Notes: a model not told the origin generated them from the letters alone. 64,000 bases of DNA from an uncultured delta proteobacterium (GCA_963704165.1 CAVPHD010000004.1:1-64000), one strand, 5' to 3'; shown: positions 1 to 22,219, numbered from the stretch's first letter. A program made the numbers and translations.

Positions 1-10
1 AGGGGGAGAT

Positions 11-637
11 GTGCGCGTAGCCGGGTTCAGATCCGACGGATTCCGCCGCGTCGCCCTCGCGGCCGCTGCCTCGTTGTTCTGCGCGTACGGCTACGGTCAG
101 GAGCAGGATCCGTTCATCGGGGCCTGGAAGCTCGTGGCGTCGGAGGCGAATCAGGGACGCTGGGACCAGGCGACCGCGGCGGCTCCGGACCTCGACGCCG
201 GACTCGCGGAGGTCGAGGACAGCTTCGGTTGGCCGCTTCGCGCCGAGATCCGATCCGCGCTCGTCTCCCACGACGCGCGCACGCTCGCCCGCGCGCTGAC
301 GGTCGCCGCCTGTGGTGCCGTTCTCCGGAAGCTCGACGCGTCCGCGCGCGAGGGATTGACCGACTACTACCGGGCGAAGTACCGGATCGAGGCGGCGCGC
401 ACGACCTACTCCGAGCTGCTCGCGCCACCTTTGCGACACCAGGACGCGACACGTCACGGGCATTCGCACGACGCCGTCTGGGACGGGCTCGCGCGAGCGC
501 AGACGGCCCTCGGTCGCCCCGGCTTTCTCGGCCGCGGGCAGGTCGCGCCCGATCGAGCCGCCTACTCGGCTGCAGAACGCGAGATCGAATCCGCACTGCG
601 AGCCGCCTTTCCGTTCGTACCGGAGGTGAAGCGATGA
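11..637 (+). CDS. Secreted helical hypothetical protein
   Basis: GGAG RBS before GTG; signal-peptide-like N-terminus; stop overlaps next start (ATGA). Confidence 0.65.
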   Translation: MRVAGFRSDGFRRVALAAAASLFCAYGYGQEQDPFIGAWKLVASEANQGRWDQATAAAPDLDAGLAEVEDSFGWPLRAEIRSALVSHDARTLARALTVAACGAVLRKLDASAREGLTDYYRAKYRIEAARTTYSELLAPPLRHQDATRHGHSHDAVWDGLARAQTALGRPGFLGRGQVAPDRAAYSAAEREIESALRAAFPFVPEVKR

Positions 638-4636: not shown

Positions 4637-4641
4637 GCGCC

Positions 4642-6429
4642 TTGAGGTCCTTCAACCTCCTGCGTTACTTCACGGTCGCGAGCCTGGTCGTGATCGCGGC
4701 GCTCGCGCTCGCCACGGCGTGGGTCTTCTCGCGCAATCTCGAGAACAGCCTGACCGAGGAAGCCGGTCTGTACGCCGAAGAGATGGCCGCTTCGCTCAAT
4801 CGCGCGATCTTCCGCGACTTCCTCGATCCACTCGCACGCGAAGGTCGCGACGTGGATCTGGAGGACCCGACTCAGCGGGGCGATCTCGCGCGGATCGTCG
4901 AGGCCCATACCCGCGGTCTGCGCATACTCACCGTCAACGTCTTCGATCAGAGCGGGACGATCATCTTCAGCACGAACGGCGACTACATCGGCTACCGCTC
5001 GATCGACAACCCCGGACTCACACAGGCGCTCCAGGGTCAGACGACCTGGTTCCTGAAGCGCGCCGAGCTCGAGCTGGACCCGATCCGTCCGGGGCACGAT
5101 CTGCTCGAGTCGTACTCCCCGCTTCACGAGCTCGATGTCGAATCGGAGGAGTTCGGCCCGATCATCGGCGTGCTCGAGCTCTATCAGGACGCACGCCCGA
5201 TCACGGCCAAGATCGCGCAGGGTGAGCGCGAGATCGTACTACTCACGTCCGGACTGATGGGGGTGCTGTTCGTGGCGCTCTTCGAGATCGTGCGACGCGG
5301 ACACGTTCGCATCGCGCGGCTCTCGGAAGCACTGGCGCTCTCGAATCGCGAGCTCGAGGCCCGCGTCATCGCCCGCACGCGCGAGATCGAGCATGCGCGC
5401 GAGCGGCTCGAGTCGCTCTTCGACGGCATCACCGACGGCATCTCCGTGATCGAGCACGACTTCCGCGTGTCGGAATGGAATTCGGGGATCGAGCGGCTCT
5501 TCGGCGCTCCGCAGGTCGCAGGGCGGGATCTTGTGTCACGAGCGCTACGCGAAACGCGCGACGCCGTGCCTCGGTTGCCCGGCACGCAGGACGATGGCGA
5601 GCGGCGTCCAGGCGCAGCGTCGGTATCGCTGGCCCGCGCCCGATGGAACGCTGCGCGAGGTGGAGGTCGTCACGTTCCCCTACACATCGCGCGAGAACGA
5701 ACGGGCCGTGATCGAGGTCGTGCGCGACGTTTCGGAGCGCGGCGAGCTGGAGCGGCAGCTGGTGCAGAGTGAGAGCCTGGCGTCGCTCGGAGAGCTCGCG
5801 GCGGGTGTGGCGCACGAGATCCGGAATCCGATCGGCATGATCCGAAGCTCCGCTCAGCTCCTCGAGGGGTCGACCGGGTTGTCGGAGCACGAGCGCACCT
5901 TGCTCGGGGTGATCGAGACCGAGGCGACACGCGTCGCGGGTACGATCACCGAGTTCGTCGGCTTTGCCGCGCCGACGAAGCCGTCGATCTCGTCGTGCGA
6001 TGTCGAGCCGATGCTGGATCGTGCGCGCACGATGTTGGCGGCCGAGGCCGCGCGTCGCGGCATGCGGATCGACGTGGACGTCGAGCCGGACCTGCCGCGC
6101 GTGCTCGTCGATCCGGAGCTCCTGCACCGCGTGCTCGCGAACCTGGTCCTGAACGCGCTACAGGTCCAGAGCCGCGGCGGCTGGGTCGGGCTCTCGGCCC
6201 GCAGCGCCGGCCCCGGCGAGGTGGCCTTGCACGTCGCGGATCACGGACCGGGGATTCCCGAGGGCGATCTCGAGCGCATCTTCCAGCCGTTCTTCAGCCG
6301 CCGTGCCGGTGGCACCGGTCTCGGGCTCTCGATCGCGCAACGGATCGTCAGCGCGATCGGTGGACGCATCTCCGTCGAGAGCGGTCCGAACGGCAGCGAT
6401 TTCTCCCTCGTGTTTCCAGAGGCGGAGCC

Positions 6430-6433
<4 letters not shown>
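4642..6433 (+). CDS. Sensor histidine kinase (periplasmic sensor, PAS, HisKA, HATPase); one frameshift near 5520-5531
   Basis: Two TMs and PAS start in one frame; PCLGCP PAS half, H-box AHEIRNP, NLVLNA, DHGPG, GTGLGL in the next frame. Confidence 0.85.
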
Positions 6434-7806
<1,373 letters not shown>

Positions 7807-7871
7807 ACCCGACGCATTCCGCATCGACCCCGAGGGGATAGGAGTCCGCGCGCGCCGGTCCACGGGCGCTC

Positions 7872-7890
7872 GATTCAGGAATTCGAACTC
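7872..7890 (+). promoter_or_regulatory. Putative activator binding site, copy 1 (GATTCAGGAATTCGAACTC)
   Basis: 15/19 identical to 13475-13493; same 40-bp offset to the -24 GG. Confidence 0.65.
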
Positions 7891-7928
7891 CTGCCCGGTC
7901 GCCGGCGGCGGAGCGGCTCGATCGCTCG

Positions 7929-7944
7929 CGGCACGCGCCTTGCT
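7929..7944 (+). promoter_or_regulatory. Sigma54 -24/-12 promoter (CGGCACGCGCCTTGCT)
   Basis: GG-N10-GC spacing; matches TGGCACG-N4-TTGC; upstream of GGAGG RBS and ATG 7984. Confidence 0.8.
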
Positions 7945-7983
7945 CCTCCGCTCCTGGCGAAATCGCTGGGACGGAGGTTCTGC

Positions 7984-8379
7984 ATGCGTCGGTTGCTCTC
8001 GGTACTGCTCGCGATCGTTCCGCTCGCGGGCTGCTTCACGGTCCGCCACTCGTACACCGGGGACAAGGTGCTCACCACGGACCCCGCTCCACCCGGTCGT
8101 GGCGTCCGGCTCGTCCGTCACTTCACCGCGCACGACCGCCAGTTCTTTTGGATCCACGGTGGCTTTCCGGTCGGCGAGTCACTGAACGCGGCCGCGCTCG
8201 CGGCCAAGGAGGCGGGCGACCACGACGCGGTCGTCAACCTGAAGATCCGCGACGGGCAGAACATCACCGACCTCTTGATCTCGCACGTGCCGTGCGTGCT
8301 GACCCTGATCTGCGGCACCTGGTCGGCGTGGGCCGAGGGGGACGTCGTGGACTATCTGCCCGAGGAGATTTCGCGATGA
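7984..8379 (+). CDS. Small lipoprotein (Bor/TRL-like)
   Basis: Lipobox LAGC; GGAGG RBS. Confidence 0.7.
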   Translation: MRRLLSVLLAIVPLAGCFTVRHSYTGDKVLTTDPAPPGRGVRLVRHFTAHDRQFFWIHGGFPVGESLNAAALAAKEAGDHDAVVNLKIRDGQNITDLLISHVPCVLTLICGTWSAWAEGDVVDYLPEEISR

Positions 8380-8771
8380 GCCGCCTGCGATCGAGTGCCG
8401 TTCTCGCCGCGCTCTGCGCCGTGCTCTCGGCCGGCTGCTTCAACGTCAACCACCGACTCCCGCCGCACGCCTACTTCGGGACGCTGCCGGCATCGCCCGG
8501 AGAAACCTCGACGCGGTTCGAGCGCAGCGCGATGAAGAACTGGCTCCTGGCCGGTCTGTTTCCGTGGTCCCGCTTCAGCAGCGACAATCTGCTCGCGGAG
8601 AGCGCCTCGGGCGTGATTCGCTACGAGAACCTCGCGGTCGAGACCCGATTCAGCGTGATCGACACCATCATCTGGCTCGTTCCCGGGCAGTTCTACGGCT
8701 ACTACGTGTGGGCCCCTCGACACGTCTCGGTGTCGGGGGACGAGGTCCGGAACGGGGTGGCGCGGCGTTGA
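8376..8771 (+). CDS. Small lipoprotein (Bor-like), probable distant paralog of the upstream gene
   Basis: Lipobox SAGC; ATGA overlap; WLLAGLFP and YVWAPRHVSVSG segments. Confidence 0.7.
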   Translation: MSRLRSSAVLAALCAVLSAGCFNVNHRLPPHAYFGTLPASPGETSTRFERSAMKNWLLAGLFPWSRFSSDNLLAESASGVIRYENLAVETRFSVIDTIIWLVPGQFYGYYVWAPRHVSVSGDEVRNGVARR

Positions 8772-10000
8772 TTCCGAGGCTGCTCGGCGCGGTTCTTCTG
8801 CTCGCGCTCGCGCGCGGCTCGGGCGCGGTCGAGGCCCCGGAGCTCGAGAGCGTCGAGCTCGTGGTGGTGGCGATCGAGGGGTGTCCGGGCATTCCCTTCC
8901 CGCGTGCCACGCGCGAGCTGGTGATCGACGGCGACCGGGCGGTCGATCGCGCGGCGCGCTTCTGGGAGCTCGATCGACCGAACAGCTTCGCGAACGGCCG
9001 CGCGTCTCGGCGCTACCGGATCGGCAAAGGCGTGCTCTCGGTCGAGTCCGAGCTTTCGCCCGGGCTCGATCGCGAGACGATCCGGATGCGGATCGCGGAG
9101 CCGATCGCCGCCGAGTACCTGGCGACCTACCTGACGGGCACGAGTCTTCCCTGCGAACGCGAAGCGCACTACACCGTGCGGCGTCGGGGTCCCGTTCGTG
9201 GCGATCTCGCAGCGCTTGCGCGCTTCGATTCCGCGCTGCTCGAGGCGACCGAGCTGCTCTACGACGCTCGCTTCGCCGAGGCCGACGTACGACTGCGTGA
9301 GGCGATGGCGCTCCGGCCCGACGACCCGGCGCCGTACTGGATGATGGCCAGGCTTCTCTACCTCGCGATCGAGGGGCGCGCGGCGGACCTCTCCCGCTCC
9401 GAGCGGATCGCAGGCTACGAAGAGGCGGAGGGCTGGGCCGACCAGGCGGTTTCGCGCGCGCCCGGACGCTCCGAGGGATATCTCTGGCAATCGATCGCGC
9501 ACGGACGAATCGCGACCAGCACCGGCCCGGTCGTCCTGGCCGTGCGCGGCTGGGTCGGCGGACGCGGGCCGAGCTGGCTCGAGGCCACCATGCGCAAGGC
9601 GGTGTCCTTGCCCGAGGACTTCCGCTTCTTCGGGTTCTCGACCCGCGCCGACGCGCTGCACACCCTGGCACAGTTCTACCGCCTCGCACCGACGGGCTGG
9701 TACATGAGCCTGGTCGGCACGAGCGGGAATCTCGATCGCGCGATCGAGCTCTCGCGTGAGTCGGTCGGGCTTCAGCCCGTTCGCATCGAGTACCGCAAGG
9801 AGCTGGCGGTCGAGCTGCTCTGCCGCGGCGCCGATGGTGACCTGGCCGAGGCGCGAGCCGAGCTCGAAGCCGCGAGCGCGATCCCCGAGATCACGCCGAT
9901 CGACCGCATCGACCACGCCCACGCGCGCGCGCTCCTGCGCCGACCGCCGGCCGACGTCTGCGGGTACTCCCGCGACGCATTCCAGGAATCGGCGACGTGA
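8768..10000 (+). CDS. Secreted TPR-containing protein
   Basis: TTGA overlap; signal peptide; TPR-like helices (ALRPDDPAPYW, AVSRAPGRSEGYLW, LDRAIELSRESV). Confidence 0.7.
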   Translation: MIPRLLGAVLLLALARGSGAVEAPELESVELVVVAIEGCPGIPFPRATRELVIDGDRAVDRAARFWELDRPNSFANGRASRRYRIGKGVLSVESELSPGLDRETIRMRIAEPIAAEYLATYLTGTSLPCEREAHYTVRRRGPVRGDLAALARFDSALLEATELLYDARFAEADVRLREAMALRPDDPAPYWMMARLLYLAIEGRAADLSRSERIAGYEEAEGWADQAVSRAPGRSEGYLWQSIAHGRIATSTGPVVLAVRGWVGGRGPSWLEATMRKAVSLPEDFRFFGFSTRADALHTLAQFYRLAPTGWYMSLVGTSGNLDRAIELSRESVGLQPVRIEYRKELAVELLCRGADGDLAEARAELEAASAIPEITPIDRIDHAHARALLRRPPADVCGYSRDAFQESAT

Positions 10001-10470
10001 CCCGCTCGGCGCTCGCGCTCTCGATCATCGTGCTCTTGTCCCGGCTCGCGACCGCGCAGTCGGAAGCGGCTGCGGCACGGGTCTGGGAGATCAACGGCAT
10101 CCGCCTCGAGCCCGCCCAGATCGAGCGTCTCGCCGACGACATGGCCGGCCGAACGGTCGATGCCGTGCGGGAGAAGATCCCGGCGATCGCGCTTCGCGAC
10201 GGGCAGGCGGAGCAGATGCGCGCCGTCTACCGCGGCGTCGCGCTCGACGTGTTCTCCGACGTCGTCCGCGAGGTCGCGCGAGACGATCGGACCGACGCGG
10301 AAAAGGAGGCGCGCGTGCGCGAGCTCGTGCTCGCCGGCCAGGGTCGCAGTCACGCCGAGCTCGCGTCGGTTCTCGACGCGCGGCAGCTCGGCCTCTACGC
10401 GGCCTGGGAAGACCGACAGGTCGAGGCCTTCAAGAGCCGGCGCTGGAACGACCGCAAGCGGCGGAGGTGA
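9997..10470 (+). CDS. Secreted helical hypothetical protein
   Basis: GTGA overlap; signal peptide; coding-like composition. Confidence 0.6.
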   Translation: MTRSALALSIIVLLSRLATAQSEAAAARVWEINGIRLEPAQIERLADDMAGRTVDAVREKIPAIALRDGQAEQMRAVYRGVALDVFSDVVREVARDDRTDAEKEARVRELVLAGQGRSHAELASVLDARQLGLYAAWEDRQVEAFKSRRWNDRKRRR

Positions 10471-10473
10471 GCG

Positions 10474-11157
10474 ATGAAGTTCTTCCGGGATCGACTGCGT
10501 GCGTGCGTGCTCGTGCTCCTGATCGCCTGCGCGGCGACGGTCGCGCGCGCCGAAGAGGCGCCGGCGGTCGGCCTCGACTGGGAGGTTCACGAGGATCCCG
10601 CAGGGCCGCTCGTCTCGTGGCTGCGTGGTGTGCGCGACGGCGTTCTCGGTCTTCTCGACGACGTGACCGACGCGCAGCTCGGGGTCTTCTCCGAGCTTGC
10701 CATCGACAGCGGCGCGCTGCTCGAGCTCGGCTCCGACTGCGTCGGGCTCGTGGACGACAATCCGTTCTCGCAGCACCTGCTCAAGGGAATCGCGAGCAAG
10801 TCGCTCGCGAAGACCGCCTGGCTCTTCCACCTGGCCGGATCCGAGGCCGTGCTCGGCAGCCACGGGCTCGAGACCGAGAGCTGGATCGCGTCGAGCTTCG
10901 AAGAGCTGAACCCGCTTCTCGATCCCGACGAGGCACCCGCGCGCCTGCCGCTCGACCCGCTCGACTTCGTCGGCGAGGGCTGGATTCACGGCGAGGTCTA
11001 CACGGTTCATCTGCCCGGGTCGATCCTGCTCGCGACCGCGGCCGCGGATCTCGTCGTCCGGCCGATCGGGAATCTCGTTCGCATCGTCGGCTTTCACGGC
11101 ACGGCGGAAAGCATCGAGGCCGCGGGTAACGGACTGGTGCGCCGGACCGTGCGCTGA
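10474..11157 (+). CDS. Secreted or membrane-associated hypothetical protein
   Basis: GGAGG RBS; signal peptide ending ARA; coupled to the MMPL gene. Confidence 0.65.
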   Translation: MKFFRDRLRACVLVLLIACAATVARAEEAPAVGLDWEVHEDPAGPLVSWLRGVRDGVLGLLDDVTDAQLGVFSELAIDSGALLELGSDCVGLVDDNPFSQHLLKGIASKSLAKTAWLFHLAGSEAVLGSHGLETESWIASSFEELNPLLDPDEAPARLPLDPLDFVGEGWIHGEVYTVHLPGSILLATAAADLVVRPIGNLVRIVGFHGTAESIEAAGNGLVRRTVR

Positions 11158-13439
11158 TGCCGGTCCTTGCACGCCTCGAACGCATCGTCTCGAAGCACGG
11201 CGTCGCCTTGCTCGTCGCGACCGCGCTCGCGACCGCGGTGCTCGCATTCGGCTACGCGCGGCTCGACTGGACCAGCGATCCCGAGGTGATCACGCTCGAA
11301 GGCAGCGACGAGCTCGATTTCTATCGGGACTTCGTCTCGCGCTGGGGAAGCGACAAGTGGGTCGTCCTCGCCTGGGAGGTCGAGGACGCGTTCTCGCCCG
11401 ATAGCCTCGGGATCCTGCGCGAGCTGACGCGGACGTTGCAGGACATCCCCGGTGTCGCCTCGGTCAGCTCGCTCGATACCGCGGCCACGGTCGAGACCGG
11501 CCCGTTCGGTCCGTTCGTGCGGCCGCTCGTTCCCGACGAGATCGGTTCGGACCCGGAGCTGCGCGAGGCGGCGCTCGCAAACAGCTTCGTGCGCGACCAG
11601 CTCGTCTCGCGCGATGGTCGGCTCCTGCTCCTCGCGGTTCAGCTCGAGGCGGGCGAGCTCGACTCGACCGCGCTCGAACGCGAGGTGCTCGCCGGGATCG
11701 ACGCGCGACTCGCACTTCCGGCCTTCGAGGCGCTCGACATCCGGCGCGCTGGTTCGCCCGTCTTCAATCGCGAGCTCGAACGGCTGAACCGCCGCGACAA
11801 CGCGATCTTCACACCCCTCGCGCTGGGAATGATCGCGGTCGTGCTCTTCCTGCTCTTTCGCAGCGTGGTCGCGACCGGGCTCGCGCTCGCGACGATCGGA
11901 CTCACCGTCGTCTGGACGCAGGGACTGATGGGTTGGATCGGCGTGCCGATGAACATCACCACGTCACTCCTGCCGCCGCTCCTGATGGTGATCGCGGTCG
12001 CGTACTCGATCCACGTGATCTCGGGCTACGTCGAGCGGCTCGGCGAAGGCCTGACGCGCGAGCAGGCGCTGCACTGGACGCTGCACGAGATGCTTCCGTC
12101 GTGTTTCTGGACCGCCGCCACGACGGCGATCGGCTTCGCCTCGCTGCTCGCGGTGAGGATCGAGAGCGTGCGGATCTTCGGACTCTTCGCCGTTCTCGGC
12201 GTCGTGCTCGCATGGATTCACGGCTCGATCGTCCTGCCGGCGCTGCTCGTGCGGCTTCCGCTCGAATCCGTGGCCGAGCGCCGGGCCGAGCTCCCGTGGC
12301 TGCGCTTCGTCGTCGCCGGATCCCACCGCCGTTGGCCCGCGCTCTGCTTTCTCGCCGTCGTGATCGCGCTGGGCTGCTGGGGCGCACCGCGCGTCGAGGT
12401 CGCAACCCACGACGGCGAGTTCTTCCGCGCCGAGAATCCGATCAATCGGGCGTACCGGCTGATCGAGTCCCGGATCGGCGGAGTGACCCCATTCGAGGTC
12501 GAGCTGCGGGGACCGTCACCGGGCGCATTCCGAACCGCAGAGGGCGTCCGCACACTCGATGCGCTGCAGTCGCGGCTCGCGGGAGTTCCCGAGCTCTCGG
12601 CCGGCACGTCGCTCGTCGATCTCCTGCGCGCCTCCGATCCGCGTCTCGATCTCGGCGACGCCGACGCGATCCGGCGCGAGCTCTTCCTGCTCTCGGCCCT
12701 CGAGCCGTTCGAGATGGATCGGTTCCTTCGCGACGACGCGCGCCTCGCGCGCGTTTCCGCTCGTGCGATGGCGATGACCTCCGCACGCAGCGAGGAGATC
12801 CTGCACGAGCTTCGCGCCGACACCCGCCGCTTCCTGCCCGCGGGCTGGAGCGCCCGATTCACCGGGCTCGTGCCCGTCTTCGCGCAGATGGAGCAGTACC
12901 TGGTCACGGGCCAGCTCGCGAGCTACGGCTCGGCGATCCTGTCGGTCGGTCTGGTCTTCCTGTTCTTGCACCGCTCGCTTCGCGTCGCCGCGATCGCGCT
13001 CGTCGTGAACATCGCGCCGATCGGTCCGACCGCAGCGCTGATGGCCAGCCTCGGGATTCGCCTGGACGTGGCCACGATCATGGTCGCCTCGATCGCGCTC
13101 GGCATCGTGGTCGACGACACGATCCACGTCTTGCACGCCTGGCGGCGTGGGCTCGAGCTTCGCGGGAATGCGGACGGCGCGCTCGAGTACGCGCTCGGGG
13201 TCGCGGGAAGGCCGACGATTCTGACCGCCGTGATCCTGGTCTGCGGCTTCGGCATGCTGACGTTCTCGGACTTCCAGCCGACGTCGCACTTCGGCGGGCT
13301 CGTGGCGTTCACCGTCGCGGTTTCGCTCGCCGCGGAGCTCGTGCTGCTGCCGCCGGCCCTCGCCTGGCTCGCGAAGCGATCCCTGCCGAGCCCGCGTGCG
13401 AATCCTGGAACGGAGCCGATTCCCGCGCACCCGCCCTGA
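11157..13439 (+). CDS. MMPL/HAE3-type RND transporter
   Basis: Two RND repeats; TTAIGFASL, GIVVDDTIH motifs; 760 aa. Confidence 0.9.
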   Translation: MPVLARLERIVSKHGVALLVATALATAVLAFGYARLDWTSDPEVITLEGSDELDFYRDFVSRWGSDKWVVLAWEVEDAFSPDSLGILRELTRTLQDIPGVASVSSLDTAATVETGPFGPFVRPLVPDEIGSDPELREAALANSFVRDQLVSRDGRLLLLAVQLEAGELDSTALEREVLAGIDARLALPAFEALDIRRAGSPVFNRELERLNRRDNAIFTPLALGMIAVVLFLLFRSVVATGLALATIGLTVVWTQGLMGWIGVPMNITTSLLPPLLMVIAVAYSIHVISGYVERLGEGLTREQALHWTLHEMLPSCFWTAATTAIGFASLLAVRIESVRIFGLFAVLGVVLAWIHGSIVLPALLVRLPLESVAERRAELPWLRFVVAGSHRRWPALCFLAVVIALGCWGAPRVEVATHDGEFFRAENPINRAYRLIESRIGGVTPFEVELRGPSPGAFRTAEGVRTLDALQSRLAGVPELSAGTSLVDLLRASDPRLDLGDADAIRRELFLLSALEPFEMDRFLRDDARLARVSARAMAMTSARSEEILHELRADTRRFLPAGWSARFTGLVPVFAQMEQYLVTGQLASYGSAILSVGLVFLFLHRSLRVAAIALVVNIAPIGPTAALMASLGIRLDVATIMVASIALGIVVDDTIHVLHAWRRGLELRGNADGALEYALGVAGRPTILTAVILVCGFGMLTFSDFQPTSHFGGLVAFTVAVSLAAELVLLPPALAWLAKRSLPSPRANPGTEPIPAHPP

Positions 13440-13474
13440 GTTGCGCGACCGGGACGCAATCGTCCGAGCGCCCT

Positions 13475-13493
13475 GATTCGAAGATTCGAACTC
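13475..13493 (+). promoter_or_regulatory. Putative activator binding site, copy 2 (GATTCGAAGATTCGAACTC)
   Basis: Matches 7872-7890 with the same offset to the -24 element. Confidence 0.65.
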
Positions 13494-13531
13494 GCGCGGC
13501 TTCACGCGCCGCGCTTCGCGAATCCCGGGCG

Positions 13532-13547
13532 TGGCATGCGCCTTGCT
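13532..13547 (+). promoter_or_regulatory. Sigma54 -24/-12 promoter (TGGCATGCGCCTTGCT)
   Basis: GG-N10-GC; upstream of AAAGGAG RBS and ATG 13580. Confidence 0.85.
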
Positions 13548-13579
13548 CCGCTCGCCCCCACGAATTCGAAAGGAGCGCC

Positions 13580-14902
13580 ATGCAGATCGTCTCCACGCTG
13601 AGGAAACTCACGGGTCTCGCCGCGACACAGGCGAGGCTCGGCCTGTCGGCGCGAGAGCTCGAGCGCGTGCAGCTGCGCAAGCTCCAGCAGGTTCTGCGCC
13701 GGGCCTGGGATCGCGTTCCGCTCTACCGGGAGAAGTTCGAGAAGGCGAACGTGCGGCCCGCGGACCTCGAGACGCTCGCCGATCTCGTCCGTTTCCCGAT
13801 CACCGAGAAGGACGAAGTCCGCGACAGCTTTCCGCGCGGCTGCGTCGCCGCCGGGACCGATCTGGCGAGCTGTCGGATCCAGCAGACCTCCGGCTCGACC
13901 GGGCAGTGCATGGAGATCGCGCTCGACCAGCGAAGCGACGACATGCGCACGCTCTTCACGCAGCGGGTGTACGGAATGCAGGGATTCCGCTTCTGGCGCC
14001 GCATGGCGTACCTGTTCCCGTACGAGCTGCCGCTGCGCAAGGGCAATGCGGGTCTGTACCGGAATCGCTGGTTCTCGACCAAGCTCGAGCCCGAGGCGAT
14101 TCTCGCGGGGCTGCGCGCCTGGCGCCCACACCTGCTCGCGGCGACGCCGAGCGATCTGCTCGAGCTCTGCGACGGGCTCCGTGGAGACCTGCGCGATCTC
14201 GGGCTCGAGGCGATCTGCGTGCACTCCGAGCCGATGTCCCGTGACGAGCGGGAGCACGTCGCTTCGCGCTTCGGCTGCCGCATCGCGACGAATTACTACT
14301 GCAACGAGGTCTGGGCGATCGCCGCGGAGTGCCAGAGCGGCGCGCTTCACCAGTTCCCGGACAACGTCGTGCTCGAGATCGTGGACGACCTCGGTCGTCC
14401 GGTGCCGCGCGGCGAGCGCGGCCACGTGCTCGTGACGTCGCTGCACAACTACGTGCAGCCGTTCATTCGCTACCGACTCGGCGACATCGCCGCCTGGGAG
14501 CCCGACAGCGGCCCGTGCGGGTGCGGGCTCGACCTTCCTCGCGTGCGCGCGCTCGAGGGCCGGGACGACGACTACATCGAGTACCCCGACGGGCGCCGGA
14601 TGCACCCCGCGCGAATCACCGTCGCGGTGAAGAGCCCGTGCTTCGATCATCCGGGCGCGCAGATCTTCCGCGACTACCGGATCACACAGGACGGTCCGGC
14701 GCACGTGACGGTGCAGATCGTTCCCGGACGCGACGCGAGTTTCCTCCGAGGCTGCGCCGAAGCGGGGCGAGCGAATCTGTCACGCCTTCTCGGCGCGCCG
14801 TTCCAGGTCGATCTCGAGATCCACACGTCGCTGCCTCGCGGCAGCGGTGGAAAGCGCAAGATCGTCGAGCGTCGTCCCGCTCCGCGAGTCACGGCATCGT
14901 GA
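13580..14902 (+). CDS. Phenylacetate-CoA ligase (PaaK/CapK)-family adenylating enzyme
   Basis: QTSGSTG P-loop, FPITEKDEVR, PFIRYRLGD, EGRDDD, GKRK. Confidence 0.85.
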   Translation: MQIVSTLRKLTGLAATQARLGLSARELERVQLRKLQQVLRRAWDRVPLYREKFEKANVRPADLETLADLVRFPITEKDEVRDSFPRGCVAAGTDLASCRIQQTSGSTGQCMEIALDQRSDDMRTLFTQRVYGMQGFRFWRRMAYLFPYELPLRKGNAGLYRNRWFSTKLEPEAILAGLRAWRPHLLAATPSDLLELCDGLRGDLRDLGLEAICVHSEPMSRDEREHVASRFGCRIATNYYCNEVWAIAAECQSGALHQFPDNVVLEIVDDLGRPVPRGERGHVLVTSLHNYVQPFIRYRLGDIAAWEPDSGPCGCGLDLPRVRALEGRDDDYIEYPDGRRMHPARITVAVKSPCFDHPGAQIFRDYRITQDGPAHVTVQIVPGRDASFLRGCAEAGRANLSRLLGAPFQVDLEIHTSLPRGSGGKRKIVERRPAPRVTAS

Positions 14903-16647
14903 GCGGAGCCATCGGGCACCGATCTCCGGTCTCTTGCGCAGCCGCCCGCCGCGATGGACGCGTGATCGCGAGTGGCGGATACGATCGGCGCATCCTGCTC
15001 TGGGACGCCACGAGCGCTTCGGTGATCCGGGAGCTCGTCGGTCACACCGGGCTCGTGAACGCGGTCGACTGGGCGCCCGATGGACGGCTGCTCGCCTCCG
15101 CGTCGAGCGACCGGACCGCGCGGCTCTGGGATGCGAACACGGGAGTCGAGCTCGCGGCGCTCCGCGGCCACGACGACGACGTGAATTCCGTCCGCGTCTC
15201 GCCCGACGGACACCGGATCGCGACCGCGTCCTTCGACGGCAGCGTGCGCGTCTTCACGCGCTCGGGTGACTGCCTGCTCGTCGCTGCGCATCACGCGACC
15301 GACGTGAACTCGGTCGCCTGGTTTCCCGACGGGCGGCGTCTGGCCGCCGCCTCGGACGACGGCACGGTCTCGATCTTCGACTCGGGAACCGGACGCATCC
15401 GTCGCGTCCTGGCGGGGCACACCGACTGGGTCGACCACGTCGCCGTGCACCCGGCGGGCGTGCTCGTCGCGTCGGCCTCGCTCGACGGCAGCGTCGGGAT
15501 CTGGAACGCGGCGAGCGGCGCGCGCGTGGCGACGCTGGCGGACGCCACCTGCGTGGTGAAGGCCGTCGCGTTCTCGCCGGATGGCACGAGGCTCGCTTCG
15601 AGTTCGTACGACGGACGCGTGCGGGTCTACGACACCGGCGACTTCCGACGACTCGAGGAGCGATCCGCGCGGGGTCTCTGGAACCGCACGCTCTCGTGGA
15701 TGGATCGCGAGCTGGTCACGGGCAGCTTCGGTGGCGGCCCGGTCCTGCTCGGCGAGCGAGGCGAACGGCGCTTCGGCCGCTCGACGACCTCGGGTTTGAA
15801 CGGCTTCGCGCTCTCGCCCGATGTCCCGCGAGCCGTCGTCTGCTGCGATGACGGAAGGCTCTACGAGCTCGATCTCGAACGCCGTCGGGTGCTGCGTGTT
15901 CTCGGTGCGCACGACGGCGCCGTGCTCTGCGCGTCGTACTCGCCCGACGGGCGCCTCGTCGCGAGTGGCTCGTGGGACCGCACGGTCCGGATCTGGGATG
16001 TCGAGGACGGCCGTGCCGTGGCGGAGATCGGCGGATTCGGTCAGCCGATCAACGCCCTGGTCTGGAACCGGGGTGGTGCGGAGCTCTTCCTCGGCGGCTT
16101 CAACGGCGAGGTCACGATCCTCGATCCCGAGAGCGGCGAGCTGACCCGGGTCGGCACGCACGTCGGTTCGGTGAAGGGTCTCGCGCGTTCGGGCGAACGC
16201 GTGGCCTCGGTCGGGCGCGACGGCTGCGTGCAGCTCCTCGGGCCCAACCTGTCCACGCGCTTTCGGGCGGGTGAGTCGATCCTGAACGGTGTCGCTCTCT
16301 CCGAGAAGGGCGACCGTATCGCGACCGTTTCGCGACGCAACGGCGTCGAGCTCTGGAGCGAGGCCGGAGAGCGGCTCGCGAGTTTCCGCGAGCACGCCGG
16401 CTCGGCCAAGGCGGTGGCGTTCTCGCGCGACGAGGCGCTGATCGCGGCGGGCTACTACGACGGCTCACTCGCGCTTTGGAGCCCCGAAACCGGCGAAGCC
16501 CGCGTCGAACGCGTCTCCGACGCGAGCATCTCGCAGGTCGGTTTCGGAAGGCGCGAGCTCCTGGTCTCGACCTGGGACGAGCGCGGCACTCTCGTCTTCG
16601 TCGATCCATGCAAGGGTGTCATCGCGCGAGTCTCGGTGGCTGCATGA
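14899..16647 (+). CDS. WD40-repeat protein (582 aa, probably a double beta-propeller)
   Basis: Repeated GH...V..V..SPDG..LAS.S.D.T.R.WD units along the whole length. Confidence 0.9.
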   Translation: MSGAIGHRSPVSCAAARRDGRVIASGGYDRRILLWDATSASVIRELVGHTGLVNAVDWAPDGRLLASASSDRTARLWDANTGVELAALRGHDDDVNSVRVSPDGHRIATASFDGSVRVFTRSGDCLLVAAHHATDVNSVAWFPDGRRLAAASDDGTVSIFDSGTGRIRRVLAGHTDWVDHVAVHPAGVLVASASLDGSVGIWNAASGARVATLADATCVVKAVAFSPDGTRLASSSYDGRVRVYDTGDFRRLEERSARGLWNRTLSWMDRELVTGSFGGGPVLLGERGERRFGRSTTSGLNGFALSPDVPRAVVCCDDGRLYELDLERRRVLRVLGAHDGAVLCASYSPDGRLVASGSWDRTVRIWDVEDGRAVAEIGGFGQPINALVWNRGGAELFLGGFNGEVTILDPESGELTRVGTHVGSVKGLARSGERVASVGRDGCVQLLGPNLSTRFRAGESILNGVALSEKGDRIATVSRRNGVELWSEAGERLASFREHAGSAKAVAFSRDEALIAAGYYDGSLALWSPETGEARVERVSDASISQVGFGRRELLVSTWDERGTLVFVDPCKGVIARVSVAA

Positions 16648-17630
16648 AGCCCGACGCCCTGCGAGCGCTCGCATTCCGTTTTCGCGAGGCGCGCGCTCTC
16701 TTCGCCGGCGTCGAGCTCGGCGTCTTCGAGGCGCTCGGAAACGAATCGAAGGACGCGGACCAGCTCGCGGGCGTGCTCTCGCTCGACACACGCGCCACCG
16801 GAATTCTGCTCGAGGCGCTCGCCGCGCTCGGCGTCCTGGTTCGCGATGGAACGCGATACGCGATTCCCGCCGAGCTTCGGGGAACGCTGGTACCGGGGAG
16901 CGCCGAGTACGCGGGGAATCTCTTCCTTCACGACCTGTGGCACTGGACGAGCTGGGGACGGCTCGACTCGGTGCTGCGAGACGGGCAGGCCTGGACCCGC
17001 CGGGATGGAGACCCGCACCTCGCCAACCCCGAAGTGCTCCGTCGCTTCCTGCCGAACTACACGCTCGCGATGGAGCAGAGCGAGGGAGGCGCGAGCGAGA
17101 GGCTCGCGCAGCGCATCGCCGCGCTCGCACCTTCGCGCGTGCTCGATCTCGGTGGCGGCAGCGGGGGGCTGCTCATCGCGCTTCTCGGGATCCTGCCCGA
17201 GGCGCATGGGACGCTCGTCGAGCACGGCTTCTCGCTCGGGCGCGCAGCGGATCTCGTGGCGGGCTCGTCGGCGAGAGAGCGGATCACGCTTCTCGCGATG
17301 GACTTCGAGAAGGAGGAGATCCCGATCGGCCACGATCTCGTCGTGCTCTCGCGCGTGCTGATGGGGATGACGCCGGAGCGAGCGCGCTCGCTCGTCGGTC
17401 GAGCCGCGCTCGCGCTCGAATGCGGTGGCGCGCTGGTCATTCACGAATTCGACGCGACGACCCGCGTCGGCGCGTTGCTCTCCCTCGACATGCTGCTCCA
17501 CACCGGCGGCGCCTCGCACCCGCGAGCGGAGCTCGAGTCCTGGCTCGCGGGCTGCGGACTCGAGCTCGAGTCGTCGCGTCGCCTGCTTCCGTACACGCGC
17601 GCCTGGATCGCGAGGAAGGCTGCGCGATGA
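16644..17630 (+). CDS. SAM-dependent O-methyltransferase with dimerisation domain
   Basis: AGVELGVFEAL dimerisation domain; VLDLGGGSG motif I. Confidence 0.85.
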   Translation: MKPDALRALAFRFREARALFAGVELGVFEALGNESKDADQLAGVLSLDTRATGILLEALAALGVLVRDGTRYAIPAELRGTLVPGSAEYAGNLFLHDLWHWTSWGRLDSVLRDGQAWTRRDGDPHLANPEVLRRFLPNYTLAMEQSEGGASERLAQRIAALAPSRVLDLGGGSGGLLIALLGILPEAHGTLVEHGFSLGRAADLVAGSSARERITLLAMDFEKEEIPIGHDLVVLSRVLMGMTPERARSLVGRAALALECGGALVIHEFDATTRVGALLSLDMLLHTGGASHPRAELESWLAGCGLELESSRRLLPYTRAWIARKAAR

Positions 17631-18343
17631 GACTTCGGGATCGATGTGCCCTGGTCACCGGCGCGGGGAAGGGGCTCGGCCGCGCGATCGTCGAGGGCTT
17701 CGTCGCGGAGGGAGCGCGCGTTCTCGCGCTCGCGCGCACCGCGAGCGAGCTGGCCCGGCTCGAGGACGCCCACCCCGGCCGGGTCGTCGGGGCGGTGCTC
17801 GACGTGACTTCGCGAGATCAGGTCGACGGACTCCCGGATCTCGTCGACAAGTCGCTCGGTCGGCTCGATCTTCTGGTCAACAACGCGGGCGTCTGGATGG
17901 AGCGCGAGTTCCTCGCGTACACGCGCGCGGAGTGGGATCTCACGATCGCGACGAACCTCACCGCGATCTTCGACGTCACGCAGTCACTCCTTCCGACGCT
18001 GCTGCGCTCGGACTCGGCGCGCATCATCAACATCGCCTCCATCGATGGCGAGGTTGGCTTCCAGAAGCTCGTCGCCCAATGCGCCTCGAAGTTCGGCGTA
18101 GTCGGCTTCACGAAGGCGCTCGCGAAGGAGCTCTGGAACGCGCCGATCACCGTGAACGCGATCTGCCCGGCCGAGGTGGACAAGTCGGTGGCGTTCAGCG
18201 CGACGCCGGCACGCGGGCCCGCTCCGGAGCGGGCGCTTCCGTGGGACGTCGCGCGCGCGGCGATCTATCTCGCGAGCGACGAGGGGGTGCGCGTGAACGG
18301 TGCCTGCCTCGACGTGCACGGCATCGGATTCCTCGCGTCGTGA
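17627..18343 (+). CDS. SDR-family oxidoreductase with atypical active site (QxxxK)
   Basis: TGAGKGLG, NNAG, NIAS; QCASK where YxxxK is expected. Confidence 0.85.
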   Translation: MRLRDRCALVTGAGKGLGRAIVEGFVAEGARVLALARTASELARLEDAHPGRVVGAVLDVTSRDQVDGLPDLVDKSLGRLDLLVNNAGVWMEREFLAYTRAEWDLTIATNLTAIFDVTQSLLPTLLRSDSARIINIASIDGEVGFQKLVAQCASKFGVVGFTKALAKELWNAPITVNAICPAEVDKSVAFSATPARGPAPERALPWDVARAAIYLASDEGVRVNGACLDVHGIGFLAS

Positions 18344-20178
18344 GTCGAATTCGGCCGGTGCTTCCGTGGCTCGTCGCCGCGGTGATCCTCGCTCTTCTCT
18401 TCGCGCGCGTGGATCTAGAGGCGACGCTCGCCGCGCTCGGGACCGCGGACCTGTACGCGTACACGCCGATCGCCGTCGTGTTCACGGTTCTCTGGCTCGC
18501 GCTCGACGCGTTCGTGCTGCGCGCGGTGTTCGCGCGCGTGGGGGCGACTCTGTCGTTCCGCGAGATGGTGCTGGCGCGCGCCGCGACGTATCCGTGGATG
18601 GTGCTCTCGTTCGATCTGTCGAACGCCGCGCTCGTCGCGGGGTTGCGTCGAAGCAGCGGCGTTCCGGTCGCGAGTCTCGCCGCGGCGATGCTCGCGCACT
18701 ACGCCTGCGACCTCGTCGCGCTGGCCACGGTCGCGGCCGTCGGCGCGGTCGCTTCGGAGGGCGCGTTCGCCGCGGTGCTCCGGCCGATGCTGATCGGGCT
18801 CGCGCTCGTCGCCGCGGGGATTCTCGTCTCGGCCCGAATGGGCGTCGCGAGGTTCGGCCGCGGCAGGCTCGCCGACGCGGTGCGCGCATTTCGCCCGCGG
18901 GATCTCGCGCGCGTCGTCGCGTTGCGCTGGCTCTTCTACGCGAGCTTCGCGCTCTTCGTCTGGCTCACGCTGCCGTGCTTCGCGCTCGACGTGCCGTTCC
19001 TCGCCGTGCTCGCCCGGATGCCGGTGGTGCAGAGCATCGCCGCACTGCCGATCTCGCCCGGTGGCATCGGGACCGCGCAGGCGGCGATGGTCGCGCTATT
19101 CTCGGGCTTCGGTCCCGCGTCGAGCTGGCTTGCGTATTCACTCGTCTACAGCCTGACCCTCGTTCTGCTGCGGCTGCCGATCGGCTTCGCGGCCTGGGGC
19201 GGACGCGCGAGCTCGGCGGGAGAAAGGAAGACCCTGCAGCTTCTCGTGCTCGCGCTCGTTTTCGTCGCTGGCTGCAGCGTCCCGGTTCCGTTCGCGGACG
19301 ACCTGCTCTTCAGCCTCGATCGGCCGCAGCTCCCGGTTTCCGAGGACTGCCGCCGCTGTCACGGCGAGGTGGTCGAGGAATGGTCCGACTCGCCGCACGC
19401 GGGAGCCTGGACGTCTCCGCGTTTCGCGGCGCTGACCGCGGATCACGCGGCCGAGGCATGTCTCGGGTGTCACGCCCCCGCGCCGATCGGACGAGAGGGC
19501 GAGATCGCCCTGCGCTCGGATCACCGCGAGGAGGGAGTCACGTGCATCAGCTGTCATCTGATGCCCGATTCCGCTCCGCTGACGATGCGCGGCCCGCACG
19601 CGCGCACGTCTCCCGTCGAGGTTCACCCGATCGAGGTCGATCCGCTCTTCACGAAGCCCGACCTCTGCGGCACCTGTCACGCGGAGGTGCTCGAGCAATT
19701 CCGCGCCGCGCCCGCTCCGGCGGACGGCTCGGAGAAGGAGATCTGCCAGGGCTGTCACATGCCGGCCGTTCGCCGCACGATCGAGAGCTACGACACGTCT
19801 CGGCCGTACTCGCGCGTGCTGGTCGCGCTCGGCAAGCCGGTGGCGGGCCGCCGGCACCGCTTCGGCGTTCCGCTCGAGCCGTGGGAGGACATCGACCTCG
19901 ACAGCCGACGCGAGGCGGACCGTTGGATCGTCCGCGTTCGCAACAAGCTGCCGCACGCGCTTCCGACCGGAGCGTTCGGGCAGCGCGAGGTGCGGCTGCG
20001 CGCGGGCGACCAGGTGATTCGCCTGCGCGCCGATCTCGACCAGGCGATCCCCGCCGGAGAGGAGCGGGGCTTCGAGCTCGCGGCCGGCGCGAGCGCCGAG
20101 GTCGTGCTCGAACGGCGCAATCCGCGCACCGGCGCATACGAGCGGCTGGCTCCGGCACCCCCGGAGGCCGAGAAGTGA
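18340..20178 (+). CDS. LPG-synthase-TM/flippase-like (UPF0104) domain fused to a pentaheme c-type cytochrome
   Basis: LPISPGGIGTAQA motif and TMs, then FVAGC and five CxxCH (CRRCH, CLGCH, CISCH, CGTCH, CQGCH) in one frame. Confidence 0.75.
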   Translation: MSRIRPVLPWLVAAVILALLFARVDLEATLAALGTADLYAYTPIAVVFTVLWLALDAFVLRAVFARVGATLSFREMVLARAATYPWMVLSFDLSNAALVAGLRRSSGVPVASLAAAMLAHYACDLVALATVAAVGAVASEGAFAAVLRPMLIGLALVAAGILVSARMGVARFGRGRLADAVRAFRPRDLARVVALRWLFYASFALFVWLTLPCFALDVPFLAVLARMPVVQSIAALPISPGGIGTAQAAMVALFSGFGPASSWLAYSLVYSLTLVLLRLPIGFAAWGGRASSAGERKTLQLLVLALVFVAGCSVPVPFADDLLFSLDRPQLPVSEDCRRCHGEVVEEWSDSPHAGAWTSPRFAALTADHAAEACLGCHAPAPIGREGEIALRSDHREEGVTCISCHLMPDSAPLTMRGPHARTSPVEVHPIEVDPLFTKPDLCGTCHAEVLEQFRAAPAPADGSEKEICQGCHMPAVRRTIESYDTSRPYSRVLVALGKPVAGRRHRFGVPLEPWEDIDLDSRREADRWIVRVRNKLPHALPTGAFGQREVRLRAGDQVIRLRADLDQAIPAGEERGFELAAGASAEVVLERRNPRTGAYERLAPAPPEAEK

Positions 20179-20813
20179 CGCTTCGGCGCGTGCCTCGCTT
20201 TGGCCGGACCACGCGCTGGTTCCACTGGACCTTCGCGCTCTCGTTTCTCGGCCTCGCGTTCAGCGGTGGCCTGCTGCTCGTTCGCGCGGAGCTCGGCATC
20301 GACGCCGCGAACATCGCGTCGCTGATCGACGCCCACAAGATCATCGCGGTCGTCTTTCTCACCGCGCCGTGGTTGATCGGGCTGTCCGGTGATCGAAGCG
20401 CGTGGCTCCGCGACCTGTCGGAGACGGCGCGGCTCCGACGAGACGATCTGGTCTGGCTCGTCCGACAGCCGCTCGCGATGCTCGGCAAGGCGGAGCTTCC
20501 GCCCCAGGACAAGCTCAACGCCGGTCAGAAGCTGAACGCTCTCGCGGTCGCCGCGATCTCGGGCGCGATGGTCGTCACCGGGCTTCACATGTGGCAGGAG
20601 CCGGGGTCGTTTCTCGCGTTGGTCGTCCACGTGATCGGCTTTCTCGCCTGGATTCCCGCCTTCTGTGTCCACCTGTTCATGGCGTTGATCAACCCGAGCA
20701 CACGTCCGGCTCTGCCCGCGATGATTCGGGGCGACGTCGATCGTGACTGGGCCGCGCACCACCACGCGCGCTGGCTCGAGTCGGTCGAGCAGGAAGAGCG
20801 GGGGCCGAGGTGA
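20175..20813 (+). CDS. Membrane cytochrome b (FdnI-like)
   Basis: RWFHW, DKLNAGQKL, heme-ligand His residues in TMs, W..HHH..W tail. Confidence 0.85.
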   Translation: MTLRRVPRFGRTTRWFHWTFALSFLGLAFSGGLLLVRAELGIDAANIASLIDAHKIIAVVFLTAPWLIGLSGDRSAWLRDLSETARLRRDDLVWLVRQPLAMLGKAELPPQDKLNAGQKLNALAVAAISGAMVVTGLHMWQEPGSFLALVVHVIGFLAWIPAFCVHLFMALINPSTRPALPAMIRGDVDRDWAAHHHARWLESVEQEERGPR

Positions 20814-22219
20814 GACTCCGTCTCGTCCTGCTCGGCGTGATCGTGCTCGGGCCCGCGATCTTCGCGCTCCTGCTGCTGCGTTCGGGTGTGCGAAGCGATG
20901 CCGCGGCGGTCGAGCCGAAGCCACGCGCGGAGGCATCCGAACCGGGAATCGTCGCGACGGTCGATCGATGGCTCGGTGTCGCACTCGACCCCGGACCGCT
21001 CGCGAAGGCGCACGCGTCGCTCGTCGGTGTCGGAAGCTGTCTCGACTGCCACGGAAGCGCGAGCCAGGTGATCGACGCGCGTTGCATCGCCTGCCACGAG
21101 GAGATCGGAGTTCGGGCGCAGCGGAAGATCGGCTGGCACGGGACGTTCGCCGAGCCGTGCCACAGCTGTCACGCGGAACACCGCGGCGAGGACGCCGAGC
21201 TGATCGTGCTCGACCGCGACGCGTTCCAGCACGACCTCTCGCGTTTTCCGCTTCGCGGCGGTCACGTCGGCGCGAAGTGCGAGGACTGCCATCTTTCGAT
21301 TCCCCTCACCGGCTCCGAGGCCGAGGTCTTCCACTTCCAGGGGATACCGTCCGCCTCCTGCACGGGATGTCACGTCGATCCGCACGCGGGCGGAAGACGC
21401 ACGGACGAGAGCCTCGGCGCGATCCGACAGATCGCTCTAGACGAGCCCGACCCCCCGCCCGCGAAGCGCTCCGCCGAGCATCCGATCGCGGGCCGCGACT
21501 GCGCGAGCTGCCATCCGGAGTCTGGATGGCGCGCTGCACAGCTTCGGCGTCGGGGCTTCGATCACGAAGCGGACACGCTCTACGCGCTTCGAGGTGCACA
21601 TGCTTCGGTCAGCTGTCAGAGCTGCCATACCGAGAAGCAGCGGAAGCTCGAGCAGGAGTCGGGCGAGGCGCCGGGACGTGCCGCAGACGCCGACTGCGCG
21701 ACCTGCCACGAGGATCCGCACGAGGGTGAAATGCGCTCAGCGAACGGCTGCCGGTCCTGTCATTCCGAAGCCGGGTGGCGGAAGGGGTTCGACCACGACA
21801 GAGATACGCGCTTTCCGCTCGACGATCTGCACGCGCGCGTGGACTGCGCTGCTTGTCACCCGGACCAGCGCTTTCGAGCCCTGGGTCGGGAGTGCAGGGA
21901 CTGCCACGAAGATGCCGATCAGCTCCTCGTGGGTCGGTTCGCGGACGCGCACTTCGATCCGGACGTGCACGCGGAAGGCGTCCTCTGCACGGACTGTCAC
22001 GGTCCGACTCGCGCCTCGAACCGACCCGCCTCGCTGGCGAAGCGCTGCGCGGACTGCCACACGCCGGAGTTCGCGGAGCTGCTCGCGACCTGGAGCTCGG
22101 AGCTCGACGCGCTCGCCCGCCGGACGGCGCTCGATCCCGCGCTGGCCGAACGCCTGCGGCGAAGTGGCGCACACAATTTTGTGTTCGCTCGATCGCGCCT
22201 GGGCGAGCGAGCTCGCTGA
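20810..22219 (+). CDS. Membrane-anchored multiheme cytochrome c, 13 CxxCH
   Basis: N-terminal TM; 13 CxxCH counted; repeated F.H...F/YxL...H...CxxCH units. Confidence 0.9.
   Translation: MRLRLVLLGVIVLGPAIFALLLLRSGVRSDAAAVEPKPRAEASEPGIVATVDRWLGVALDPGPLAKAHASLVGVGSCLDCHGSASQVIDARCIACHEEIGVRAQRKIGWHGTFAEPCHSCHAEHRGEDAELIVLDRDAFQHDLSRFPLRGGHVGAKCEDCHLSIPLTGSEAEVFHFQGIPSASCTGCHVDPHAGGRRTDESLGAIRQIALDEPDPPPAKRSAEHPIAGRDCASCHPESGWRAAQLRRRGFDHEADTLYALRGAHASVSCQSCHTEKQRKLEQESGEAPGRAADADCATCHEDPHEGEMRSANGCRSCHSEAGWRKGFDHDRDTRFPLDDLHARVDCAACHPDQRFRALGRECRDCHEDADQLLVGRFADAHFDPDVHAEGVLCTDCHGPTRASNRPASLAKRCADCHTPEFAELLATWSSELDALARRTALDPALAERLRRSGAHNFVFARSRLGERAR

Follow-up and report, generated by a model that had tools for sequence, protein, structure and literature searches.

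Palindrome pairs at two sigma54 promoters as probable enhancer sites of an adjacent NtrC-family activator in an uncultured delta proteobacterium

We analyzed a stretch of 64,000 nucleotides from an uncultured delta proteobacterium of soil/freshwater type (GCA_963704165.1 CAVPHD010000004.1:1-64000, hereafter the window), which represents the first 64 kb of contig C4 of genome G000, a 3.87-Mb assembly that is 84% complete and has 68% GC. Two sigma54 promoters in this window, P1 and P2, are each preceded by a pair of palindromes. To judge from sequence comparison, these pairs are very probably enhancer sites of the NtrC-family activator encoded next to P1, which would switch on both halves of the gene cluster downstream. 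The link to the activator is based on the promoter elements and their spacing, their conservation in orthologues, their co-occurrence with the activator, and P3, a third promoter that is built alike and lies elsewhere on the contig.

Promoter elements and the shared palindrome

The elements of the two promoters are as follows (positions are those of the window).

7793..7808: P1 distal palindrome, GTTCGAAAGCTTGAAC, at about -162 to -147; spans the last codons and stop of the activator gene
7809..7872: P1 spacer, 64 bp, with A/T patches at spacer positions 8-10 and 28-31
7873..7888: P1 proximal palindrome, ATTCAGGAATTCGAAC, at about -82 to -67; core of the motif drawn in an earlier, sequence-only reading
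7929..7945 (+): P1 sigma54 -24/-12 element, GG at 7930-7931 and GC at 7942-7943
13396..13411: P2 distal palindrome, GTGCGAATCCTGGAAC, within the 3' end of the MMPL gene
13412..13475: P2 spacer, 64 bp, with A/T patches as in P1 (ATTCC at 13419-13423, AGTTG at 13439-13443)
13476..13491: P2 proximal palindrome, ATTCGAAGATTCGAAC, the top-scoring site genome-wide
13532..13548 (+): P2 sigma54 -24/-12 element, GG at 13533-13534 and GC at 13545-13546

Both promoters contain a GG-N10-GC element, with the GC 12 bp after the GG, which agrees with the sigma54 consensus TGGCACG-N4-TTGCW quoted in PMC3707914 and PMC9765219. From spacing alone, transcription is predicted to start near 7955 at P1, where GGAGG is found at 7973-7977, and near 13558 at P2. 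Sigma54 itself is encoded in G000 (rpoN, PF04552 match, E 2.5e-63). A simple scan of positions 1-20000 revealed no sigma70 promoters or intrinsic terminators near the sites, and no Rfam families were detected in 1-25000.

The sequence-only reading had described a 19-mer at 7872-7890 (GATTCAGGAATTCGAACTC) and 13475-13493 (GATTCGAAGATTCGAACTC), with the GG of each promoter (7930 and 13533) lying 40 bp past its last base, and all of these positions were found to be correct. The same reading had pointed to a shared GCGCCTTGCT, which is present at both promoters but largely reflects the genome-wide sigma54 consensus: it occurs at 4 of 26 strong sigma54-like sites, and TTGCTC at 14 of them. The 12-mer GCGCCTTGCTCC is restricted to the P1/P2 pair (2/26).

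Exact matches to the 19-mer occur only twice in the genome, at P1 and P2, and none of 11 additional matches at 1-2 mismatches has a sigma54-like element downstream on the same strand. Within the window, 10 matches with no more than 3 mismatches were observed, compared with 1.73 expected. When upstream regions were compared in register over 19 bp for all 325 pairs of the 26 strong sites, P1 and P2 showed the highest identity (15/19; the runner-up had 13). Comparison of orthologues revealed that the 19-mer had a real core but that its edges and symmetry had been misdrawn: the flanking G and TC vary, and what is kept is a 16-bp palindrome, RTTC-N8-GAAC, with the ideal form GTTCGAAnnTTCGAAC. A direct-repeat reading (8-bp TTCGAA repeats, similar to the half-sites of Nla28; PMC9765219) was considered and rejected; it fits the proximal site of P2 alone, and the orthologues favor the dyad. 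Further sites upstream had been anticipated, and a scan without distance limits indeed identified a complete second palindrome 80 bp upstream in both promoters.

The motif is apparently undescribed. In a literature search of partial coverage, in which the logos of Desulfovibrio regulators were not compared, the motif string was never found together with sigma54 and an enhancer-binding protein, and a search for TTC-N8-GAA gave an unrelated match only.

Conservation and co-occurrence with the activator

We collected 14 orthologous P1 and P2 promoters from 5 genomes and 6 metagenome contigs, of which 2 near-duplicates were dropped. Conservation upstream of orthologues had been proposed as a check on the motif, and it held: two dyads and a sigma54 element are present in all 12 distinct promoters, the dyads being kept against divergent flanks. 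The end of the proximal dyad lies 41 bp from the GG in 10 of these promoters, 42 bp in one and 39 bp in one. The pitch from site to site is 80 bp in 8, 81 bp in one, 69 bp in one and 20 bp in two; the gap between the sites is 53-65 bp, or 4 bp in one derived lineage.

The presumed binder of the palindromes and its partner are encoded just upstream of P1.

4642..6433 (+): sensor histidine kinase (Pfam: periplasmic domain between two transmembrane segments, PAS, HisKA, HATPase_c)
6430..7806 (+): NtrC-family sigma54 activator, likely binder of the palindromes

The activator is intact and has the domains of a group I NtrC-family protein, namely a receiver with its Asp, Walker A/B and GAFTGA motifs, and a Fis-type helix-turn-helix (HTH) (PF00072, PF00158, PF25601 and PF02954, all above cut-off). 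Since its NCBIfam scores are all below the family cut-offs (AtoC 506/714, which is the best; NtrC 438/559; ZraR 409/760), it falls outside the AtoC, NtrC and ZraR equivalogs. The best NCBIfam match of the kinase from G010 is AtoS, with a score of 212 against a cut-off of 646.

Two further features of the activator family were observed. The C-terminal tail of the protein (…HGRSKA, 7789-7806) reads through the distal palindrome in this genus, and the proteins of G013 and G020 end short of it; the site may have been there first, with the tail later extended across it. One orthologue, P0024, has the same recognition helix and degenerate GAFTGA and Walker A regions, and may be a non-activating variant.

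The distribution of the promoter was examined in a panel of 225 genomes of the class. The first target gene was detected in 14 of them and the HTH region of the activator in five (G000, G003, G010, G013 and G020). All five activator genomes have the site pair and sigma54 promoter before the first target gene, compared with none of the nine other cluster genomes, whose 14 fetched regions (3-20 kb, some ended by contig edges) contained no site pair. A similar relationship was observed in metagenomes (33 loci found, 31 analyzed after leaving out two weak matches): the promoter is present at 6/6 loci with the activator tail upstream and at 0/21 others with upstream DNA, and four loci had no upstream DNA. 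Among the other activators of G000 and G007, none has a similar HTH (best 17/39 residues). The co-occurrence expected of an upstream activating sequence is therefore seen at P1, with one orphan P3 in G007. Given the intact domains and the co-occurrence in 5/225 genomes, the proposal of the sequence-only reading, that the adjacent GAFTGA activator binds the motif and that the motif marks its mini-regulon, appears to be the best one.

A third promoter was found independently. We built a matrix from 14 sites of relatives (3 identical to window sites having been removed) and applied it to 1171 sigma54-like positions in G000. P1 (45.7) and P2 (36.4), which score high partly through homology, were followed by a third locus at C4:236909/236987 (35.7), and the next position reached 20.2 only; there are three such loci in all of G000. 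At P3 the pitch is 78 bp, an extra half-site precedes the pair by 30 bp, and the sigma54 element follows the proximal site by 85 bp; the promoter precedes two WD40 genes that are 50-60% identical to the cluster WD40 genes of relatives. It recurs in two other genomes, and its distal site is non-coding in all three. In G013, which belongs to another genus and has the activator, the pitch is again 78 bp with a half-site 30 bp up, the GG lies 51 bp past the proximal site, and the WD40 gene that follows is 51% identical. In G007, P3 is near intact (sigma54 element 18/18 and proximal site 16/16 identical, gapless spacing).

The P3 region of G000 lies outside the window (G000:C4:236879-240816; L111:6880-10817). 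The second gene of its tandem WD40 pair is frameshifted, and the region adjoins a Crp/Fnr-like regulator gene. In G007 the neighborhood also contains hemerythrin-like genes (labels from reading translations), a hint at an oxygen or nitric-oxide stress context.

It is extremely unlikely that all this is a chance likeness of two GC-rich intergenic regions without any functional element. The motif is short and was noticed post hoc in a genome of 68% GC, and a relaxed two-site pattern matched at 26 loci in 21 of the 225 genomes, with a control background of similar size and chance matches in 15 unrelated genomes at about control level. A pattern of proximal site plus promoter similarly gave 7 matches outside the cluster, about the control level (5), and two of three inspected are plausible unrelated sigma54 promoters. 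Against chance stand the independent discovery of the third locus and the conservation of 12 orthologous promoters amid divergent flanks. Moreover, 11 of the 26 relaxed matches have a sigma54 element within 130 bp, all of them in the five activator genomes or G007, and none of the other 15 has one nearby. We also observed a strong sigma54 element before an lpxC-like gene in an unrelated genome (L070, G111:C165), with a TTC-N8-GAA-type site at a similar distance and no link to the regulon.

Several observations weigh against the assignment of the palindromes to the adjacent activator or against parts of it. First, G007 (97% complete) keeps P3, yet searches for the activator, kinase, lipoprotein and methyltransferase turned up no orthologues there. 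Second, the five activator genomes belong to one family, and the co-occurrence represents one or two evolutionary events, not five. Third, our tabulation rule required GAAC and sought the proximal site 36-46 bp from the GG, which fixes the last four positions of the logo; an unconstrained scan found the same sites, and the matrix scan of the genome also had no distance window. Fourth, each of the two distal sites in the window shares its sequence with a gene. Fifth, the kinase gene, which in G000 adjoins and overlaps the activator gene, is broken by a 1-base frameshift near 5515-5535 (net one extra base compared with G010 and L081). Finally, with regard to the bending step discussed below, the spacers show no above-chance match to the Escherichia coli integration host factor (IHF) consensus (p 0.05-0.93), and in 12 spacers the core WATCAA-N4-TTR is matched at 4-6 of 9 positions (p 0.07-0.93 vs genome windows). 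The frameshift is likely an assembly error, because several other genes of the G000 assembly are also split and the kinase is an open frame in four relatives (G010, with 600 amino acids, G013, G020 and L081).

The orphan P3 might indicate that the promoters are sigma54-dependent but that some other protein, be it an activator or a repressor, occupies the palindromes, the adjacent activator being a bystander or using other sites. There are about 16 sigma54-activator genes in G000, some in pieces, which could supply such a protein, and the GTTC/GAAC dyad presumably resembles the site of a LexA-type protein, which we regard as a candidate only. We consider this explanation improbable. At the flanking AI-2E gene, no other genome matches G000 as closely as G007 does (87%), and one contig of G007 (L198:13735, G007:C8) passes directly from a point just ahead of the first cluster gene into the 3' part of the SDR gene. 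About 18 kb, including the kinase, the activator, P1 and P2, are gone, and a truncated SDR gene and the cytochrome genes are left. Such a clean deletion on a single contig indicates that the loss was recent, and the simple reading is that P3 of G007 is a recently orphaned promoter. In addition, no other activator-less genome among the 225 has the site pair with a sigma54 element, a site pair within 1.5 kb is lacking at all 26 loci of more distant activators whose recognition helix differs, and the presence of only three loci in G000 is unlike a global regulator.

A further possibility is that the proximal palindrome is the sole enhancer, the distal copy and the spacer having been kept through coding overlap or because P2 was copied from P1. 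The weakness of the P2 distal site, whose score is equaled or exceeded at 219 genome positions, fits this, as do the positions of the distal sites in the window, across the stop codon of the activator and inside the MMPL gene. P2 is genus-restricted and absent in G013, G015, G020 and G022, where the MMPL gene adjoins the ligase gene; it is an internal promoter added in one genus, hence recent and possibly a duplicate of P1. Several findings make a single-enhancer design quite unlikely. In G013 (120 bp from the GG) and G020 (110 bp from the GG), the distal site of P1 persists outside coding sequence, as does that of all three P3 promoters. In the window, the distal sites are spelled with rare codons (share among codons for the same amino acid: CGT 8%, AAA 7%, GCT 5%, CCT 4% and AAT 18%). 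G000, G003 and G010 share one sequence for the P2 copy, although their MMPL proteins are 79% identical. For these reasons the distal site appears to be more than a coding by-product. Furthermore, the forms with a 20-bp pitch constitute one clade (95/95) nested among 80-bp forms in a tree of 11 target-gene sequences, which points to a single 60-bp deletion; this lineage retained both sites, 20 bp apart.

Geometry, spacer and a possible mechanism

Counted from the predicted starts at 7955 and 13558, the site centers lie at about -74 and -154 in both P1 and P2, within the range of about 70-160 bp upstream of the start in which dyad sites, usually two, are found. The proximal site had been thought unusually close to its promoter, which was an overstatement: a center at -74 is at or just beyond the lower limit of roughly 70 bp for NtrC sites (PMC7408454), and promoters with their nearest site <100 nt away make up the largest fraction among those of sigma54 in Desulfovibrio (PMC4641369). 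The long pitches (69, 78 and 80-81 bp) are near half-integer helical turns and the short pitch is near two turns, and the promoter distances of 41, 51 and 85 bp are roughly in phase; with few independent values, this pattern is suggestive only.

The 39-42-bp stretch between proximal site and promoter has 72-90% GC and no conserved A/T element. The long spacers between the two sites carry A/T at positions 8-10 and 28-31 across all three promoter types (positions 8-10 and 30-31 are A/T in 80-90% of 12 spacers). These positions coincide with the outer elements of the IHF consensus of E. coli (A-tract and TTR; PMC1874591), and the central WATCAA element is absent. Two genes of the IHF/HU family (PF00216) are present in G000, each of which may encode IHF or HU. 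In the 85-bp form of P3, an A/T-rich IHF-like stretch was detected between site and promoter (p 0.05-0.13 vs genome windows), as at classical promoters (PMC2709558).

Based on established sigma54 biology, the neighboring kinase would phosphorylate the activator, whose dimers would occupy both palindromes, oligomerize and use GAFTGA to remodel sigma54-RNA polymerase. From the proximal site (-74), contact with the polymerase would be made across a short loop that is rich in GC and free of IHF-like sequence, and P2 may boost the second half of a cluster that is one long operon elsewhere. The weakest step concerns the A/T patches of the 62-65-bp spacer: they might form an IHF or HU site whose bend lets the two dimers meet, an assignment we make tentatively and with slightly more doubt than confidence.

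For this step, we regard it as an even call whether the activator binds both sites while the A/T patches have some other role, such as intrinsic curvature, extended contacts of the activator or the site of a second regulator. In favor of another role, the spacers do not resemble the E. coli IHF consensus significantly and WATCAA is missing (PMC1874591), and instances of the spaced A/T pattern elsewhere in the genome showed no interior A/T enrichment. On the side of a bending protein, the patches occupy the positions of the outer IHF elements and are kept across three non-orthologous promoters, and the pattern occurs 63 times at this spacing in non-coding DNA genome-wide compared with 39 +/- 7 at other spacings (own promoters excluded, crude gene mask, pattern picked after seeing the spacers). 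The whole segment also became dispensable once the sites were adjacent.

The more specific idea that a bending protein acts between the enhancer sites instead of between enhancer and promoter, with an IHF-type U-turn in the spacer joining the two dimers, seems to us rather unlikely. IHF-assisted sigma54 promoters (nifH, Pu, Po, pspA and glnHp2; PMC2709558, PMC13682980) are comparable in that the enhancer acts at a distance and a bending protein may assist. They differ in that IHF binds between enhancer and promoter, whereas here the sole conserved A/T element lies between two enhancer sites; a literature search of partial coverage found no description of IHF in that position. If the idea is true, sites 78-81 bp apart (about 7.5 turns; 69 bp in one genus) would form an active ring at the minimum looping distance (-74), and the natural 60-bp deletion, with sites 20 bp apart, would be a bending-independent control.

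The gene cluster, related systems and biological meaning

Four co-oriented genes run into the kinase and activator genes, and the genes behind the two promoters are the following.

7984..13439 (+): genes after P1, comprising two lipoprotein-like open reading frames (ORFs), a TPR protein, two hypothetical proteins and an MMPL/RND transporter
13580..22219 (+): genes after P2, comprising a PaaK-like AMP ligase, WD40, O-methyltransferase, SDR, a flippase-like/cytochrome c554 fusion, cytochrome b561 and a multiheme cytochrome c

The first lipoprotein-like ORF is Bor-like according to an Atlas lead, in which Bor accounts for 41-58% of cluster members. For the TPR protein, the Atlas lead scores are under 0.9 and a single-sequence fold was unusable (predicted local distance difference test, pLDDT, 44.8). 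The fusion is a 612-amino-acid ORF (18340-20178) that combines a flippase-like (LPG synthase TM) domain with cytochrome c554; the two are separate genes in G007, G013 and G020, and in G003 and G010 a WD40 gene lies between them. Downstream of the AI-2E gene, a heavy-metal P-type ATPase gene (YHS and metal-binding N-terminus) spans several frames at 23353-25662, and it is missing at this position in G007 and G008.

In G010, G013 and G020, the gene that opens the regulator operon has no site pair ahead of it, and transcription of the regulator genes is likely to start at a separate promoter, of sigma70 type, that lacks such sites. The first 620 positions of the window are 100% identical to G000:C5:299319-299938, and C5 continues into a second rpoB/rpoC region which is only about 71% identical to that of C9; contamination or a chimeric contig end is the likely cause. 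C5 carries the authentic sequence upstream of the first gene, with a TTGACG -35-like box kept in G007, G010, G013 and G020.

The PAS domain of the kinase contains a cysteine cluster, C-H-x8-9-C-x2-C-P, in G000, G010, G020 and L081, and G013 has no match to this pattern. Since these cysteines suggest a redox or metal cue, our best guess is that such an input controls a module for the synthesis and export of envelope lipids or small molecules. In lineages without the activator, the same cluster may be under other control. At the head of the cluster, G017, G202 and metagenome locus L093 have a regulator of OmpR type, indicating a probable regulator swap from the sigma54 system to a probable sigma70 OmpR-type two-component system. 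TTCAT/TTAA-type repeats were also observed before the first lipoprotein gene in such lineages (L038:2236-2330, L093, L106:1-110, L039 and L043).

Several known systems resemble the one proposed here. In the NmpR regulon of Myxococcus xanthus (PMC11841059), an NtrC-like regulator is associated with two dyads (S1 and S2) before a sigma54 promoter and with a small regulon that includes genes beside the regulator, but the motif there is GCGCA-N5-TGCGC with sites mostly 14-15 bp apart, whereas ours is RTTC-N8-GAAC with 53-65 bp between sites. CorSR and the curA operon of the same species (PMC3707914) likewise combine a kinase and a sigma54 activator with an adjacent multi-gene cluster with several predicted internal sigma54 promoters, but their targets serve copper tolerance, and the genes behind P1 and P2 include no multicopper oxidase or P-type ATPase. 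An identity with the copper-responsive CorSR, raised by the nearby heavy-metal ATPase, was rejected; no CorSR-type targets lie behind P1 and P2, and the ATPase gene is not preceded by a site pair.

AtoS-AtoC and ZraS-ZraR of E. coli and enteric NtrC at glnAp2 share the order of receiver, AAA+ and Fis-type HTH domains, the GAFTGA motif and two sites per promoter; they differ in targets and motif, and our scores are below the cut-offs of these families. The activator regulons of Desulfovibrio (PMC4641369) are similar in that the regulator often lies beside its own promoter, controls 1-4 operons with the nearest site often within 100 nt, and in many cases recognizes a motif peculiar to it. They come from another phylum, and a similar motif may occur among their logos. 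Taken at face value, the window would encode an ordinary NtrC-family two-component mini-regulon with a somewhat unusual layout, presumably functioning like the NmpR, CorR, AtoC or NtrC regulons.

The established picture of sigma54 promoters is not overturned by these results. They provide a testable motif and a three-promoter regulon for an uncharacterized two-component system in an uncultured Myxococcota lineage, and would join the envelope/cytochrome cluster of 16 genes and the distant pair of WD40 genes in one response. The natural series of pitches (20, 69, 78 and 80-81 bp) and promoter distances (39-42, 51 and 85 bp) offers ready constructs for studying enhancer geometry and bending. The occurrence of the same cluster under an OmpR-type system in other lineages would be a clear case of regulator swapping.

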